NCBI GenBank assembly: GCA_963741945.1
Contig: CAVUKA010000003.1
Coordinates: 787,998-851,997, forward strand
Direction: 5' to 3'
Source: an uncultured Gemmatimonadales bacterium
Lineage (GTDB): Bacteria > Gemmatimonadota > Gemmatimonadetes > Longimicrobiales > RSA9
Length of the DNA: 64,000 nt
The first letter of the stretch is position 1. Each line of letters opens with the position of its first letter. A program made the translations under genes and the position numbers. The notes below the pieces were generated by a model, which did no database searches, had not been told where the DNA came from, and worked only from the letters and a program-made list of their open reading frames with translations. Below, one piece after another: positions 4,866 through 64,000 of this stretch.

Positions 4866-5845
4866 ATGACGCTCGAGGACCTGAACCGGCGGATCAACGC
4901 ATTCCGGGAGAGCCGCGCGCTGCTCACGGCCATTGAGCTGGACCTCTTCACGGCCGTGTCGCGGGGGCGCGGACGCCGGAGCGTGTGGCGTCCCGCCTCG
5001 ACACGGACCCGCGAGCCACGGAAGCCCTCCTCAACGCCCTCGTGGCCATCGGCGTGCTGGAGAAGCGCGACGGAACGTTCCAGAACACGGACCTCGCCGC
5101 CGAGCACCTGGCGGCTGGCGGCGAGCACGATTCGCGCGCGGCGATCATGCACACGGTCCACCTCTGGCCTCGCTGGTCCACGTTGACCGACTGCGTGCGC
5201 GAGGGCACGTCCGTGATGCGCCGCGCCCGCGCCCGGGACGACGACTGGACGGAAGCCTTCATCGCGGCCATGCACCGCAATGCGGCCGATCGGGCGCCGC
5301 GCGTGGTGGAGGCCATCGGCGTCGACGGCGTCCGGCGGGTGCTGGACGTGGGTGGCGGCTCCGGCGCCTACTCCATTGCGTTCGCCCGGGCCGAGCCGGC
5401 GCTCGAGGTGGACATCCTGGACGTCCCCGACGTGGTCCCCATCGCGCAGCGCCACATCCAGGAGGCGGGGGTCACGGACCGCGTTCGCCCCCGCGCCGGC
5501 GACTTCCGCACCGACGACCTGGGCCACGGCGACTACGACCTGGTCTTCCTTTCCGCCATCTGCCACATGAACGGCCCGGAGGAGAACCGGCGTCTGCTCG
5601 AGAAAGCGTTCGGCGCCCTGGCGCCGGCGGGCCGCATCGTCATCCAGGACTTCATCCTCGACGCGGACAAGACCGCGCCCGCCATGGGCGCCCTCTTCGC
5701 CCTCAACATGCTCGTGGGCACGCGCGCCGGGAGTTCCTACAGCGAGCCGGAGTACGCCGACTGGCTTCGCGACGCCGGCTTCGACGACGTGCGCCGCCTT
5801 CCGCTCCCGGGCTCCACGGACCTGATGGTCGGCCGACGTCCCTGA
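4866..5845 (+). CDS. Class I SAM-dependent O-methyltransferase with dimerisation domain; frameshift at G run 4963-4967
   Basis: N-terminal SRALLTAIELDLF in one frame; LDVGGGSG and GDF motifs in the 4985-5845 ORF. One extra G joins them. Confidence 0.85.
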
Positions 5846-9246: not shown

Positions 9247-10023
9247 TCAGTCCGCGGACTCTTCTCCCCAGTCCCGCTCAGACTCCCGCTCCGCCAGCGT
9301 GACCAGGGCATCTTCTGCCGCTTCCGCCACTTCCGGGTTCCCGTCGCGCGTGAGGCGCTCCAGCACCGGCCGGGCGGTCGGGTGGCCGATGCGGCCGAGG
9401 AGGTCGGCAGTGTCGCCTCGGCGGGCGTCGTCGTCCGCCATGGAGCCCGCGCCCTCCAGACCGGCGATGAGCGCCGGCACGATCGGGTCCATGCCCAGCG
9501 GGTCGTACAGCAGCGACTCCTCCGCCACCAGCAGCAGTCCCATGCGGTCGTGCAGCGTGCTCGACACCCACATCTCCAGGAACGCCGCGGTGCCGCGCCC
9601 GTCGGCCAGCCGCTCCGCCGCATCGGCGTGGCGGCCTGCCTCCACCAGGGACGCGAAGACGATCCTGGCCGCGTCCGGCCCCTGTCGCTCCACCAGCCGC
9701 CGCGCCAGCTCCTGCGGTGCGACGACGCCGGTCATGATCAGCTCGTCGTCCACCACGGTCGTGGGCACCGCCCGCACTTCGTACCGCTCCATCAGCTCGC
9801 GTTCCACGGACACGTCGACCACTTCCACGACCACGTGCGGGTTGGCCATGGCCACCGTGGCCACGGAGCGCAGCTGGTGCGGACACACCGGGCACCCGGG
9901 CGCCACGAAGAGCAGCACCTCCGTATCCTTTTCCAGCGGCGCCAGCACGCCCACGACCGCTTCCACGTCGGCCGCGTCGGTCAGTGCTTCCAGTGTCTCG
10001 AAATCCGTCGATTGCTCATCCAT
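9247..10023 (-). CDS. Thioredoxin-fold (CPVC) protein with C-terminal HEAT-like repeats
   Basis: FVAPGCPVCP, cis-Pro motif VRAVP, C-terminal ADLLGRIG...NPEVAEAAEDAL. Confidence 0.75.
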   Translation of the reverse strand: MDEQSTDFETLEALTDAADVEAVVGVLAPLEKDTEVLLFVAPGCPVCPHQLRSVATVAMANPHVVVEVVDVSVERELMERYEVRAVPTTVVDDELIMTGVVAPQELARRLVERQGPDAARIVFASLVEAGRHADAAERLADGRGTAAFLEMWVSSTLHDRMGLLLVAEESLLYDPLGMDPIVPALIAGLEGAGSMADDDARRGDTADLLGRIGHPTARPVLERLTRDGNPEVAEAAEDALVTLAERESERDWGEESAD

Positions 10024-58825: not shown

Positions 58826-59818
58826 TCAGCGCGCGGCCAGCAGCTCCGGCACGCGCGAGGGGTCGATGTTCCCGCCGGAGATCACGGCAGCCGCGGCCCC
58901 GCCGGACCACGCCCCCGACTCCAGCGCGGCGACGGTGGCCGCGCCGGAATACTCGACCAGCAGCTTGCCCCGCGCCAGCAGGCGACCGGCCGCGGCGCGG
59001 ATCGCGTCGTCATCCACGAGCACCACGTCGTCCACCAGCGCGCGGGCGTGGGCGAACGTGAGCGCGCCCACGCGGACCGGGAGCAGCCCGTCGGCGATGC
59101 TGTCCGTGGCATCCAGCGTCACCAGCTCGCCGGCGTCGAGAGAGCGACGCATGGCCGCGGAGCCCGTGGGCTCCACCCCCACCACCGCCACTCCGGGGCG
59201 GAGCCGCTTCACCGCCGCAGCAACGCCGCTCAGCAGCCCGCCCCCGCCGATCGGAACCAGGATCGCCTCCACGCCAGGCCAGTCCTCCACGATCTCCAGC
59301 CCGACCGTCCCCTGCCCCGCGATGATGTCCGGATGGTCGAACGGCGGGATCATGACCATGCCCCGCCGCTCCTGCTCCCGCTCCGCACGCGCCCGCCGCT
59401 CCTCCGACGTGGTCCCCTCCATCACCACTTCCGCCCCCAGACGCTTCGTCCCTTCCACTTTCACTGCCGGCGCGTTCACCGGCATGACGATGAGCGCCGG
59501 GACCCCGAACCGACGCGCCGCGTACGCCACGGCCTGGGCGTGGTTCCCGCTGGAGTAGGTGATGACGCCGCGGGCCCGCTCCTCCGCCGAAAGCCGGGAG
59601 ACCATGGTGTACGCGCCCCGGAGCTTGAACGCGCCGATCGGCTGGAACGACTCGCACTTCAGCCGCACTTCGCTCCCCACCACCTCCGTGACCCACGGCG
59701 CCGGGAGCAGCGGAGTGCGCACCGCCACACCTTCCAGGCCGCGGGCGGCGGCGAGGATCGAGTCGAGCGTGACCAGCTCCGCGGCCGTAGCGGCCGGGCC
59801 CCCGGACGCGGGACTCAC
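58826..59818 (-). CDS. PLP-dependent threonine/serine dehydratase
   Basis: [24 protein letters not shown]. Confidence 0.92.
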
Positions 59819-62505
59819 GACTCCGGCTCTGCGTCCGCGGACAGCCCCTCCGCGCTCGGCTCCGCCGACAGCGCCTCGCCGGCCGCTTCGTCGCCGATCA
59901 ATTCGTCGCCGATCAACTCGCCGTCGATCGCCTCGTCGTCCTCCGGGACCAGCCGCGCCACGTCCATCACTTCGTCCGCCTCGTCCAGCGCGATCAGGCG
60001 CACGCCCTGCGTGTTGCGACCGATGACCCGGATCTCGGACACCGACTGCCGATTCACCACGCCGTTGCGCGTGATCATGACCAGCTCGTCATCCGGGTTG
60101 ACGCCCTTGATCGACACCACCTTCCCCGTCTTGCTCGTCGTCCGGATGTTGATCACGCCCTTCCCGCCCCGGCCCTGCAGACGGTAGTCGTCGATCCGGC
60201 TTCGCTTCCCGAGCCCCCGCTCCGTCACCACCAGCAGCGTGGGCTCCCCCTCGACTCCCGCTGCCGGCGGCTCCGCCGGCGACGCCCCGTCACCCGCCAG
60301 CGCGGCCGCTTCCTCGTCCGCCGCCGTGCCGGCCGCCGACGTGGCTCCGCCCGCCTCGCCGATCGCCGCGGCGCCCGGGCGGACCACGACCATGCCGACC
60401 ACGTAGTCGTCCTTCATCAGGCGGATGCCCCGGACGCCGGTGGTGGCCCGCCCCATCTGCCGGACGTCATCCTCCTGGAAGCGGATGGCCATGCCCTCGT
60501 GCGTGGCCAGGATCACCTGGTCGTCGCCCGACGTGATCTGGACATCGATCAGCTCATCGCCCTCCAGCACGTTGATGGCGTTCACGCCCGTGACGCGGAT
60601 GTGCTGGTATGCGCTGAGCGCGCTCTTCTTCACCACGCCGCGACGCGTGGTGAACAGCAGGTTCAGCTCGTCGCTGAACTCGCGCACGGGGACCACCGCG
60701 GCGATGGCCGCCTCCGGCCCGAGCTGGAGCAGGTTGATGATCGGCTTCCCCCTCGCGGCGCGGCCGACCTGCGGGATCTGGTGCACTTTCAGCCAGTAGC
60801 ACTGGCCGCGGCGGGTGAACACCATGAGGTAGTCGTGGGTCTGCGCCAGGAACAGGTGCTCGACCCAGTCTTCCTCCTTCGTGTTCATCCCCATCAGCCC
60901 CCGCCCGCCCCGGCGCTGCGTCCGGTACGTGTCCAGCGGGAGGCGCTTGACATACCCCGCGTGGGAGATGGTGACGACCATGGGCTCGTCGGGGATCAGG
61001 TCCTCGATGGACAGGTCGACACTGTCGCCCACGATCTGGGTCCGCCGGTCGTCGCCGTACTTGTCCGCCAGCTCCTGGAGCTCGTCCTTGATGATCTGGA
61101 AGCGGCGAGCCTGGTTGGACAGGATGTCCTCCAGGTCCTCGATGGTGGCCAGGACCTGCCGGATCTCCTCTTCCAGCTTCTCGATCTCCAGCCCCGTGAG
61201 GCGGGCCAGGCGCATGTCCAGGATCGCCCGCGCCTGCGCCTCGCTCAGCTCGAACTCCGACATGAGGGAGCCGCGCGCTTCCTCCGTGTCGCTCGAGCCG
61301 CGGACGATCTCGATCACGCGGTCGATGTTGTCGACGGCGATCTTCAGCCCCTGGAGGATGTGCTCGCGCGCCCGGGCCTGCGCCAGGTCGTGCTCGCTCC
61401 GGCGCACGATCACTGTGTGGCGATGATCGATGAAGTGGCGGAGCAGCTCCTTCAGGCTCATGACCCGCGGCACGCCATTGTCCAGCGCCAGCATGATCAC
61501 GCCGAACGTGGACTGCATCTGCGTGTGCTTGAACAGCTGGTTCAGCACGATGTAGGGGATGGCGTCGCGCTTGAGCTCGATCACCACGCGCATTCCGTCC
61601 CGGTCGCTCTCGTCGCGCAGGTCCCGGATGTCCGTGATCCGCTTGTCGCGCACCAGCTGCGCCATCTGCTCGATCATGCGCGCCTTGTTCACCATGTACG
61701 GGATCTCGTGGACGATGATCCGGCTGCTGCCGTCGTCGTCCTCCTCGATCTGCGCTTTCGCCCGCATGATGATCCGGCCCCGCCCCGTCTCGTACGCCTC
61801 ACGGATCCCGTCGCGACCATGGATGAACCCGCCCGTGGGCAGGTCCGGGCCGCGCACGTGCTCCATCAGGTCCGCCACCGTGCACTCCGGGTTGTCCACC
61901 AGGTGCTGCGCCGCCGCCACCACTTCACGCAGGTTGTGCGGCGGGATGTTCGTGGCCATCCCCACCGCGATCCCGGACGCCCCGTTCACCAGCAGGTTCG
62001 GCAGCTTCGACGGCAGGACCACCGGCTCCTCGCGCTGGTCGTCGAACGTGGGCGTGAAGCCCACGGTGTCCTTGTCGATGTCCGCCAGCAGCTCCTGCGC
62101 GATGGCCTGGAGCCTCGCCTCCGTGTACCGGTACGCCGCGGCGTTGTCGCCATCGATGGAGCCGAAGTTCCCCTGCCCGTCCACCAGCGGGTAGCGCAGC
62201 GAGAAGGACTGGACCATCCGCACCATGGCGTCGTACACCGCCGAGTCGCCGTGCGGGTGGTACTTCCCCAGCACTTCGCCCACCACGTTCGCGCTCTTCT
62301 TGTACGGCCGCGTGGGGCCCAGACCCAGCTCGCTCATGGCGTACAGGATCCGCCGGTGCACCGGCTTCAGACCGTCCCGCACGTCCGGCAGCGCCCGCTG
62401 CACGATCACGCTCATCGAGTAGTCCAGGAAGGACTCCCGCATCTCCTCCTCGATGAGGCGAGGAAGGACTTTCGACTGCGTTCCGGGCATGTCCGGAGTG
62501 TCCAT
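59815..62505 (-). CDS. gyrA: DNA gyrase subunit A
   Basis: [30 protein letters not shown], GyrA-box QRRGGRG. Start ATG 62505 or TTG 62511. Confidence 0.97.
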
Positions 62506-62642
62506 CGGCAACCGTTTTCTTGAATGAGTCGAGTCGGGGGGCCGGCCGGTTGACCGGCAACCCCGTAATTTAGCCAGTTTCCAGGGTTTCTGCGAGTCAT
62601 TCGTCGTACACCTCCGGGCCTCCGAAGTTCACGCGCGCGCGC

Positions 62643-62816
62643 GCGGAGAACGGCGGAGAGGCGGAGAGAGGCGGAGAGGCGGAGAGGCGGAGAGGCGGAG
62701 AGGCGGAGAGGCGGAGAGGCGGAGAGGCGGAGAGGCGGAGAGCGCGGAGAGGCGGAGAGGCGGAGAGGCGGAGAGGCGGAGAGGCGGAGAGGCGGAGAGC
62801 GGCGGAGAGCGCGGAG
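62643..62816 (+). repeat. 8-bp tandem array (GCGGAGAG)n
   Basis: 19 exact copies counted from 62653 to 62809, with short interruptions and degenerate flanks. Confidence 0.95.
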
Positions 62817-63107
62817 GAACAGCGGTTCACGCGGAGCCGCGGAGAACGCGGAGGTCCGGCGGCGAGGGCCGGGAGACGGACTCGCCCGGGCGGCTTCCGG
62901 GGGATTCTCTTTTGTTTGTGCCGCGCGCGGCTACGGTGGCGGCATGGCGGGCCCCGCGGGGGATGCCGGGATCACGGTGGAGCGTCGGAGGGAGCGGAGG
63001 AACAGCGATTCACGCGGAGTCGCGGAGAACGCGGAGGGTCCGGCGGCGCGGGCCGGGAGACGGACTGGCCCGGGCGGCTTCCGGGGGATTCTCTCTTGTT
63101 TCTGCCG
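62811..63107 (+). repeat. Repeat family A: two ~113-bp direct repeats (62811-62923, 62994-63107)
   Basis: Near-identical copies, each containing CACGCGGAGyCGCGGAGAACGCGGAG. Confidence 0.92.
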
Positions 63108-63122
63108 GGCGCGTTGACACCG

Positions 63123-63449
63123 CCCGGCCACTCGGGGGACCCCGGGGGTCCTCCGCGTCCTCCGCGGCTCCGCGGCTCCGCGTGGAATGGTGTATCGGAG
63201 CGCTCGGTGGCGGCGGAGGCTGGCACCGCTCGGCATGCCCCGGCCACTCGGGGCAACCCGGGGGTTCTCCGCGTCCTCCGCGGCTCCGCGTGGAACGGTG
63301 TATCGGAGCGCTCGGTGGCGGCGGAGGCTGGCACCGCCCGGCATGCCCCGGCCGCTCGAAGCAGCCCGGGGGTCCTCCGCGTCCTTCGCGGCTCCGCGTG
63401 GAATGGTGTATCGGAGCGATCGGTGGCGGCGGAGGCTCGCGCCGCCCGG
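63123..63449 (-). repeat. Repeat family B: three tandem ~108-116-bp units
   Basis: Units start at ~63123, 63239 and 63347. Each carries CTCCGCGTCCTyCGCGGCTCCGCGTG (core motif in reverse orientation). Confidence 0.92.
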
Positions 63450-63452
63450 ACG

Positions 63453-63923
63453 CTAGGAATTGACCCGGAGTCGGGAACCGGAGTCGGGGACGTAGCCGTT
63501 CACGATGCGGGAGATGCCCTCCTTCATGGTGGGCGCGCCGAAATTGAGGAGGAGGGCGACCTGCAGGTCCATCAGGCGGAGATACGTGAAGGTCTGCCGG
63601 CGGTGGACCGGAAGCAGGTGCTCCACCGCCTTGACCTCCACCACCACGATCTCGTTGATCAGCAGGTCCACCGTGAGCGCGCCGTCGAAACGGAGGCCGT
63701 CGTATTCGAACGTGACCGGCCGCTGGCGCTCCACCCGCAGTCCACGCCGCGCCAGGTCCTTCGCCAGCAGCCGCTCGTACACCGACTCCAGCAGCCCCGG
63801 CCCCAGCCCCCGGTGCAGCCAGTAGGCGGCATCTACGATCTCCGCCGTGATCACATCCGTTCCGGGCACGACTTCGACGATTCCGCAGTCGTGTCCCCCG
63901 CCCGCCTCACCACTCCCCTTCAT
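63453..63923 (-). CDS. GxxExxY protein (PD-(D/E)xK nuclease-like family)
   Basis: LGPGLLESVYE, VDLLINEIVVVEVK, Q..TYL, LLLNFG. Start may be a downstream GTG. Confidence 0.93.
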   Translation of the reverse strand: MKGSGEAGGGHDCGIVEVVPGTDVITAEIVDAAYWLHRGLGPGLLESVYERLLAKDLARRGLRVERQRPVTFEYDGLRFDGALTVDLLINEIVVVEVKAVEHLLPVHRRQTFTYLRLMDLQVALLLNFGAPTMKEGISRIVNGYVPDSGSRLRVNS

Positions 63924-63932
63924 GGCTCCTCA

Positions 63933-64000
63933 CGCAGTTCCCTCCGCGCTCTCCGCGCCTCCGCGTGACCGCAGTTCCTCCGCGCTCTCCGCGCCCTCCG
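63933..64000 (-). repeat. Two further core-motif copies upstream of the GxxExxY gene (second truncated by window end)
   Basis: CTCCGCGCTCTCCGCGCCTCCGCGTG at 63942-63967 and from 63978, each preceded by CGCAGTTC. Confidence 0.88.

Follow-up and report, generated by a model that had tools for sequence, protein, structure and literature searches.

A GxxExxY nuclease gene bounded by inverted triple-heptamer repeats: a candidate compact selfish DNA element in several bacterial phyla

In REP/RAYT (REPIN-RAYT) systems, one small nuclease-type gene, coding for an HUH/Y1 transposase (the REP-associated tyrosine transposase, RAYT), is flanked by inverted short repeats, the repetitive extragenic palindromic (REP) sequences, and a single gene is accompanied by many intergenic, gene-less inverted doublets. 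REPs are palindromes and are lineage-specific. In insertion sequences (IS) and miniature inverted-repeat transposable elements (MITEs), terminal inverted repeats bound one-protein units and short gene-less units with the same ends, respectively. Homing endonuclease genes are free-standing or intron-borne, and some of them code for enzymes of the PD-(D/E)xK type, such as I-Ssp6803I. The intervening sequences of 23S rRNA have a stem formed by inverted repeats, and their open reading frame (ORF) belongs to a four-helix-bundle family. Here we analysed a locus that resembles each of these systems in part. It occupies positions 62.6-64.0 kb of a 64,000-nucleotide stretch of DNA (hereafter called the window) from an uncultured bacterium of the Longimicrobiales (Gemmatimonadota), and it comprises a gene of the GxxExxY family in a nest of repeats built from CGCGGAG heptamers. 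On balance, and with reserve, we favour the reading that this region represents one gene-bearing copy, together with amplified gene-less pieces, of a compact, repeat-bounded selfish nuclease element found widely among bacteria. By analogy, such an element would resemble REP/RAYT or IS/MITE systems in its operation and would belong to neither family.

The locus shares with REP/RAYT systems the small nuclease-type gene between inverted short repeats, the intergenic gene-less inverted doublets and the ratio of one gene to many repeats (1:35 in Bacteroides finegoldii, see below). It differs from them in its enzyme, a PD-(D/E)xK protein (PF13366) instead of an HUH/Y1 transposase; in its repeat arm, which consists of TCA and three direct heptamers whereas a REP is a palindrome; in the near-identity of the repeat sequence across phyla; and in the 3' repeat being part of the coding sequence. 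As in IS and MITEs, terminal inverted repeats of ~27 bp bound a one-protein unit at four of the loci described below (L040, L069, L121 and L123), short gene-less units have the same ends, and one insertion polymorphism was found. Unlike IS and MITEs, the unit codes for no known transposase family, no target-site duplication was seen outside the repeats of L040, L069 or L121 (the L121 junction being approximate), and a hydrolytic nuclease would be incapable of strand transfer by itself. We know of no autonomous IS as small as the ~440-bp unit. The likeness to homing endonuclease genes lies in a very small, putatively selfish nuclease gene that is found amid conserved housekeeping genes, has their orientation and differs in its presence between relatives; its spread would rely on host repair. 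In contrast, homing endonuclease genes are not known to have inverted-repeat bounds or to leave families of gene-less hairpins. With the 23S rRNA intervening sequences, of which that of Coxiella is given as 428 nt long with a small ORF in PMC4990558, the locus has in common a short, selfish-looking insert with one small ORF within a transcribed region. The ORF family is a different one, and the units described here are intergenic in operons rather than located in rRNA. Four-helix-bundle genes with similar repeat flanks presumably exist as well; none was present among the 103 ORFs downstream of triple-heptamer sites or in the 24.8-kb B. finegoldii contig analysed below.

An earlier note, made from the letters of the window, had claimed that the triple-CGCGGAG motif recurs around the gene, that no full copy occurs elsewhere in the window and that a linker is common to both sides of the gene. 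Searching both strands of the full 64 kb with the pattern CACGCGGAGnCGCGGAGnnCGCGGAG, with up to three mismatches allowed, and reading the sequence directly, we recovered all the copies claimed: on the plus strand at 62828-62853 and 63011-63036, on the minus strand at 63151-63176, 63267-63292, 63375-63400 and 63942-63967, and an additional partial minus-strand copy at 63978-64000, clipped by the window end. A seventh pattern match, with three mismatches, lies within a microsatellite at 62724-62749. All seven matches fall inside 62724-63967, where 0.01 would be expected by chance in the 64-kb window, and 0 of 100 shuffles attained this number. CGCGGAG heptamers are likewise concentrated, with 23 of the 56 found in the window located in its final 2 kb. 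The linker, too, is borne out, as 62802-62826 and 63968-63992 are 96% complementary across 25 nt. The plus-strand copies sit in two direct units of ~130 bp and the minus-strand copies in three tandem 108-bp units. A single arm is made of three direct heptamers and is not a palindrome; a hairpin needs two arms.

The 156-residue product of the gene is indeed a GxxExxY protein, as the same note had it, since it matches TIGR04256 (E = 2.3e-35, 121.4 bits for a cut-off of 35) and PF13366 (PDDEXK_3; E = 5.3e-35, 120.7 bits for a cut-off of 22), its sole Pfam domain. The motif after which the family is named reads G43-L-L-E46-S-V-Y49. Residues E46, Y49, E96 and K98 are invariant in 61 aligned homologues and D86 is present in at least 90% of them, and we take E96, K98, D86, E46 and Y49 as the putative catalytic set of a PD-(D/E)xK nuclease. 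An AlphaFold2 model (predicted local distance difference test score of 86.7) displays an alpha/beta order consistent with this fold. In the protein database, 7,894 of the 8,000 scored candidates are homologues, and the family comprises 29,100 clusters at 50% identity (E <=0.001). A sequence search of solved structures yielded 0 matches, the PADLOC defence models gave 0 families at E <=0.01, and the phage library returned one PHROG only (E = 0.0046). With proteins of Parvibaculum, Dongiaceae, Odyssella and Rhizomicrobium the window protein shares 63-70% identity, and with one of Longimicrobiaceae 69%. Because alphaproteobacterial proteins are that similar although the host belongs to the Longimicrobiales, the comparison suggests horizontal transfer of the window gene. 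Many close homologues have no Pfam domain other than PF13366 and yet are labelled by the Joint Genome Institute (JGI) as 'iron complex transport system substrate-binding protein', probably a propagated wrong name. A number of representatives of 272-295 residues (P0122, P0124, P0128, P0130, P0145 and others) show two matched stretches and are either tandem GxxExxY genes in one read-through ORF or true fusions.

In other genomes, the gene is found bracketed by the same repeats, in units composed of YTCA, three heptamers, the gene, three heptamers and TGAR. We scanned 185,579 reference genomes for three CGCGGAG heptamers at 8-9 bp spacing, which yielded at least 122 motif stretches from >10 phyla, and we analysed 120 loci (1.11 Mb, ~80 of them with 10-kb flanks), all from genomes other than that of the window. 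Using phmmer and tblastn with 28 queries, we identified GxxExxY genes at only three of these loci, two of them exactly bracketed. In a Rhizobium-like metagenome-assembled genome (L040), a 439-bp unit lies after genes for an AMP-binding and a MaoC protein, which share its strand, and consists of TCA plus three heptamers, the gene, and three inverted heptamers plus TGA. In a member of the Verrucomicrobiales (L069), a 440-bp unit separates purM from purH, and the gene terminates in a stop codon that is the TGA of the repeat end.

We also searched from the protein side, comparing the window protein by tblastn with 72,556 plasmid records, and fetched all eight records that were found. Flanking repeats are present at all eight homologues, and they are canonical inverted triple heptamers at four. 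These are a 437-bp unit of CGCGAAG type between fabD and fabG of Sphingomonas parapaucimobilis (L121), a Gemmatirosa homologue with CGCAGAG-type hairpins on both sides, a 472-bp unit with CACAGAG, CGCAGAG and CACGGAG heptamers between radA and a gene for a flavin adenine dinucleotide (FAD) protein in B. finegoldii (L123), and a Bernardetia homologue of CACAGAG type. The other four homologues are flanked by three AATCC-containing units on each side (Persicobacter), one 11-nt inverted repeat (Treponema), direct repeats of ~50 bp (a Fusobacteria strain) and AAATC-type triple repeats (Prevotella). The AATCC/AAATC or direct flanks of Persicobacter, the Fusobacteria strain and Prevotella are found at ~1340-2050 of L125, L127 and L128; in Prevotella, the following small ORF likewise has an AAATC-type unit in front of it, giving the region a cassette-like look.

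PF13366 is the sole recurrent family among the ORFs that start at most 70 nt downstream of triple-heptamer sites (5 of 103). An all-against-all comparison of the 1,018 ORFs within 600 bp of motifs gave seven two-member clusters, one of which is the GxxExxY pair of L040 and L069; the other six clusters are uncharacterised. A recurrent partner gene near the motif is therefore rejected, as no further family of known identity recurs in this set. The earlier note had proposed that the gene is tied to a repeat family of its own, in a way comparable to REP/RAYT. The tie itself is supported, with inverted triple-heptamer brackets in Alphaproteobacteria, Verrucomicrobiota, Gemmatimonadota and Bacteroidota, and the likeness to REP/RAYT extends to gene-less inverted pairs in many genomes and to one case of presence/absence; it fails at the enzyme, which has no HUH/Y1 domain, and at the arm, which is not a palindrome. 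Most copies of the motif lie away from GxxExxY genes, yet the homologues share a flanking motif.

The repeats have also left their mark on the proteins. Translated in frame, the 3' repeat reads SA(x)[SP]R[LP]R[VI]N, a tail present in 66 of the 120 closest homologues; the N-terminal sequence RG[AGD]AExAE, the translated 5' repeat, is present in 10 of them. As a stricter proxy, we counted any 7-residue peptide encodable by three heptamers of 12 types, with the wrong orientation as a control. Such peptides occur in the C-terminal tails of 73 of the 120 closest homologues (control, 3) and of 26 of 150 diverse representatives (control, 4).

The motif found by the genome scan is spread, according to record titles, over Planctomycetota, Verrucomicrobiota, Acidobacteriota, Gemmatimonadota, Myxococcota, Chloroflexota, Nitrospirota and others, and over Alpha-, Beta-, Gamma- and Zetaproteobacteria, with some loci in AT-rich surroundings (L003, L007). 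Its spacers are chiefly purines, and its prefix is TCA in 68 of 174 matches and otherwise commonly CAC, CAA or CCA. An inverted partner is present at most 250 nt downstream of 85 of 137 arms (local score >=14), and the opposite arrangement, with the partner upstream, was seen for only 8 of 137; none of the 90 control stretches taken 1 kb away has one. At the level of loci, 67 of 120 have an inverted partner and are hairpin-forming. Of the rest, 28 show a solo arm behind a TCA-like prefix, 9 consist of plain tandem arrays, and 16 belong to other or unclear cases, some of them probably coding or simple repeats. Gene-less inverted pairs are thus the common form, with interiors of 6 to ~250 nt.

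Adjacent arms frequently carry variant heptamers (CGCAGAG, CGCGAAG, CACAGAG or CACGAAG), and partner arms tend toward one deviating heptamer or toward one deviation common to all three. Concerted change within an arm is suggested by these sequences; independent mutation does not yield uniform arms of differing type. At L094 (157-215), for instance, three CGCGGAG face three CGCAGAG across a 6-nt loop, and internally uniform arms whose partner is of another heptamer type, e.g., three CGCAGAG or three CGCGAAG opposite three CGCGGAG, are also found at L019 (2683-2915), L066 (~5032-5340), L024 (~9940-10023), L105 and L068. At L086 (300-570), L077 (9259-10112) and L107, three arms of three types (CGCGGAG, CGCAGAG and CGCGAAG) follow each other ~45 nt apart on one strand, and the opposite strand mirrors the series, though without a simply nested order. 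In a member of the Mariprofundaceae (L026, 4380-4815), three tandem gene-less units of ~130 bp and of CACAGAG/CACGGAG type have a conserved 55-nt interior. Hairpins also flank ordinary genes on both sides, at L063 (1566-1640 and 2190-2276), L013 (3769-3794 and 4725-4869) and L077 (9640-9720); the genes between them are that for the ActD subunit of alternative complex III, a long ORF of 287 codons and, by sequence reading, an apparent tRNA gene.

The B. finegoldii contigs of the plasmid collection harbour the 34-nt 3' repeat at 35 places in 15 records, all of them intergenic, for one GxxExxY gene. The gene-less units of this species (four fetched hairpins and one 24.8-kb contig) have interiors of 33-126 nt. 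A second inverted repeat, of ~140 nt, lies beside one of these hairpins (L132, 1265-1430); its sequence is unrelated to the heptamers, and it is a sub-threshold look-alike of a microRNA (miRNA) precursor. Pseudogene remnants of the nuclease within gene-less hairpins were sought by tblastn with 28 queries, and none was found. Evidence for insertion comes from the genus Sphingomonas: S. parapaucimobilis has 436 extra, repeat-bounded base pairs between fabD and fabG, and in S. paeninsulae the unit is absent, leaving a gap of ~32 nt as read from the alignment.

We propose the following model for the element. The full unit, of ~440 bp, consists of YTCA and three CRCRRAG heptamers at 8-9 bp spacing, a gene for a GxxExxY nuclease of ~125-155 residues, and an inverted repeat ending in TGAR, into which the final codons of the gene usually extend. 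The gene-less inverted pairs would be its non-autonomous derivatives. The nuclease would recognise the heptamer arrays at both ends and cut at or near the YTCA boundary; the units would then move or home via host repair, and the gene-less pairs would be mobilised in trans. Expression would occur by read-through from host operons; the gene shares the orientation of its neighbours at all eight loci where both are known, and no promoter-like site was found in the window region. The likely ribosome-binding site would be GGAG, either within the last heptamer or close to it.

Several observations weigh against this reading. A hydrolytic PD-(D/E)xK nuclease alone cannot join DNA, and movement would need host functions. 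Foldseek detected PD-(D/E)xK folds (Cas4, tRNA-splicing endonuclease and Hjc types) only weakly, with a best E value of 0.017; it found nothing at E <=0.001 and no close functional analogue. The gene is present at the motif in only 2 of the 120 scan loci, a scarcity that a REP-like or MITE-like system would also predict, and at L058 a GxxExxY gene has no clear repeat, although there is a hairpin 1.7 kb away. At four of the eight plasmid homologues the flanking repeats are non-canonical, and some of these are in direct instead of inverted orientation. The empty site is a single case, from species that are only 74% identical in DNA and with an approximate junction, and no target-site duplication accompanies the three units mentioned above. 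Lastly, spacer 2 and the 4-nt prefix co-vary between paired arms, and some pairs differ by G/A changes only, as selection on a hairpin, of RNA or of DNA, would give.

These last features form part of the case for the rival that survives best, which we judge unlikely. It holds that the inverted repeats are RNA hairpins that process, stabilise or insulate operon transcripts, in parallel with REP stabilisers and with the stems of 23S rRNA intervening sequences, and that the gene merely resides inside, uses host transcription and does not act on the repeat. Spacer 2 agrees in 11 of 23 arm pairs, for a shuffle mean of 3.74 that 0 of 20,000 shuffles raised to the observed value, and the prefix agrees in 10 of 23 (shuffle mean, 3.56); the agreement of spacer 1 is marginal (11 of 23, shuffle mean of 7.26, reached in 1,075 of 20,000 shuffles). 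Variation is compensated in some pairs, as in L130, where CACTGAG faces CTCAGTG, and the arms that differ by G/A only (L094, L024) permit G-U pairing on one strand. The polarity of such G/A differences between arms was dropped as a test of RNA pairing, since the scan demanded one all-G arm, which forces the result. The co-orientation of the gene with its neighbours on both sides, in eight of eight loci, is in line with this rival; no sigma-70-like promoter was found in 62400-64000, and the B. finegoldii sites lie between co-directional (5) or convergent (2) genes, never between divergent ones. Against RNA hairpins, pairing alone leaves unexplained why the heptamer, the purine spacers and the TCA are conserved over >10 phyla and in AT-rich genomes, why GxxExxY is the sole recurrent cargo and why there is an insertion polymorphism. 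Moreover, the spacers mismatch in about half of the pairs, and 28 of 120 loci have solo arms. No Rfam family was matched at threshold: with Rfam 15, the window region gave one chance-level match only, and 20 hairpin loci gave only sub-threshold miRNA-precursor look-alikes and one tRNA.

The layout of the last 1.4 kb of the window bears on a further rival. On the minus strand, which is that of the gene, two tandem 5' repeats are followed by the gene, the three 108-bp units, the two ~130-bp units in opposite orientation and the microsatellite. The distal 5'-type repeat, at 63978-64000 (minus strand), was delimited by direct reading of its heptamer positions and is connected by the linker GGAACTGCGG to the proximal 5' terminal repeat at 63942-63968 (minus strand). 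The latter, an exact pattern match made of TCA and three CGCGGAG at 8-9 bp spacing, terminates 18 nt upstream of the ATG, in the same position and orientation as in L040, L069 and L121. The gene spans 63453-63923 (minus strand), with its ATG at 63923-63921 and its stop codon at 63455-63453. Comparison of codons with L040 revealed that the end of the coding sequence (63456-63492, minus strand) contains a decayed 3' repeat: over its last ~36 nt, the gene corresponds to an inverted but decayed version of the motif, which encodes ...VPDSGSRLRVNS, where intact relatives have ...PSASPRLRVNQ, and the R-L-R-V-N codons (63456-63470) differ from the L040 repeat at third positions only. Because of these third-position differences, the R-L-R-V-N tail may be under selection as protein, and because the 3' repeat has decayed while its peptide was kept, the window copy may be fixed or domesticated, and perhaps immobile.

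This decay is the starting point of the rival in which the whole system is a domesticated one: GxxExxY would be a cellular site-specific nuclease acting in repair, defence or regulation, and the repeats, as operators or targets of this nuclease, would be retained because they serve the host and not for their spread. As a general account we find it distinctly improbable. The retention of the RLRVN peptide in the window and of SRLRI in some of the nearest homologues (P0002 and P0006-P0009, 75-76% identity), the strong conservation of the putative catalytic residues and the very large size of the family are in line with it. Conversely, no PADLOC model matched, the gene lies among unrelated housekeeping operons (fab, pur, radA, gyrA) without a recurrent partner gene, it is present or absent between congeners, and the window protein is about as near to alphaproteobacterial (63-70%) as to Longimicrobiaceae (69%) proteins, which fits horizontal transfer. 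Copies such as that of the window may have a domesticated host function.

The remaining repeats of the nest correspond, in our favoured reading of a selfish element, to its amplified gene-less pieces. The three tandem 108-bp units occupy 63123-63449 on the minus strand (Tandem Repeats Finder, TRF, period 108, 3.0 copies, 87% matches), and each contains a 5'-type repeat consisting of CCA and three to four CGCGGAG, at 63151-63184, 63267-63292 and 63375-63400. The two ~130-bp units were delimited on the plus strand by their repeat families. Unit A2 (62980-63113; 91-94% identity) harbours TTCA and three CGCGGAG at 63009-63036, which on the gene strand is a 3'-type arm and forms with 63151-63184 an inverted pair that is 92% complementary and has an interior of 114 nt. 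Unit A1 (62797-62929) harbours the same arrangement at 62826-62853, an exact pattern match. The flanks of units A and B showed no homology past the repeat itself among the fetched loci and, for A1, in the rest of the window. The microsatellite (GGCGGAGA; 62652-62816, plus strand; TRF period 8, 19.9 copies, 93% matches, score 276) is an expanded sub-repeat plus spacer located ~140-300 nt upstream of gyrA. The gyrA gene (59815-62511, minus strand; PF00521 and PF03989) lies outside the element, beyond the repeat nest on its downstream side, and shares its strand with the nuclease gene. All its 8,000 scored candidates have E <=1e-50, the best 120 share both domains, and its best named relatives belong to the Longimicrobiales (76-82% identity). 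Its ORF has 898 codons from a TTG, and the source's own protein has 875 residues (59815-59930, 62442-62511); its C-terminus is an acidic repeat tail.

A true REP/RAYT system, or a conventional IS accompanied by MITEs, would account for a gene between inverted repeats and for the many gene-less inverted doublets. We consider this very improbable, with family membership refuted by the domain content, as PF13366 is the sole domain and no Y1/HUH or DDE transposase family was matched. The arm of three direct heptamers without a palindrome speaks against it as well, and no target-site duplication was seen at L040, L069 or L121. That the repeats arose by chance or mere microsatellite instability unconnected to the gene, a notion favoured by the 20-copy, 8-bp microsatellite of a related unit in the window and by the 9 plain tandem arrays and 16 other or unclear cases among the scan loci, has a negligible probability and is rejected, since the excess of matches (7 for 0.01 expected), the exact recurrence of the bracket architecture in unrelated genomes, the 0 of 90 control stretches with an inverted partner and the C-terminal peptide counts all contradict it.

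We found no published description of the element in searches on family names and repeat strings, which did not cover the TIGR04256 family text; the listed literature matching the repeat strings is unrelated by its titles, and the passage matching 'GxxExxY' concerns a Cas4 call and is likewise unrelated. In the relevant part of Steczkiewicz 2012 (PMC3424549), the function of PF13366 is given as 'Unknown'. The element looks like undescribed, compact selfish DNA. More tentatively, and with more doubt than conviction, we raise the possibility that GxxExxY units form a new superfamily comprising the smallest autonomous mobile DNA elements known (~440 bp). In such a superfamily, a nuclease of ~120 residues would read three tandem heptamers at each end, and the units would spread between phyla and seed gene-less intergenic hairpins, with the heptamer type (CGCGGAG, CGCAGAG, CGCGAAG or CACAGAG) switching in concert within an arm as the specificity of the protein diversifies.

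For the family, the link to the repeats gives a very large group of PF13366/GxxExxY proteins without an assigned function a concrete, testable DNA-repeat substrate, and it points to a likely selfish-element biology. It would account for a class of intergenic hairpins that ranges from Bacteroides through Sphingomonas to Gemmatimonadota, as well as for the odd terminal extensions of database entries (RGAAENAE... and ...SASPRLRVNQ), and it flags wrong names such as the JGI label mentioned above. If the nuclease does mobilise the unit, this would add a new enzyme class to the modes of DNA-element movement and provide a sequence-specific nuclease of very small size whose recognition site looks modular.

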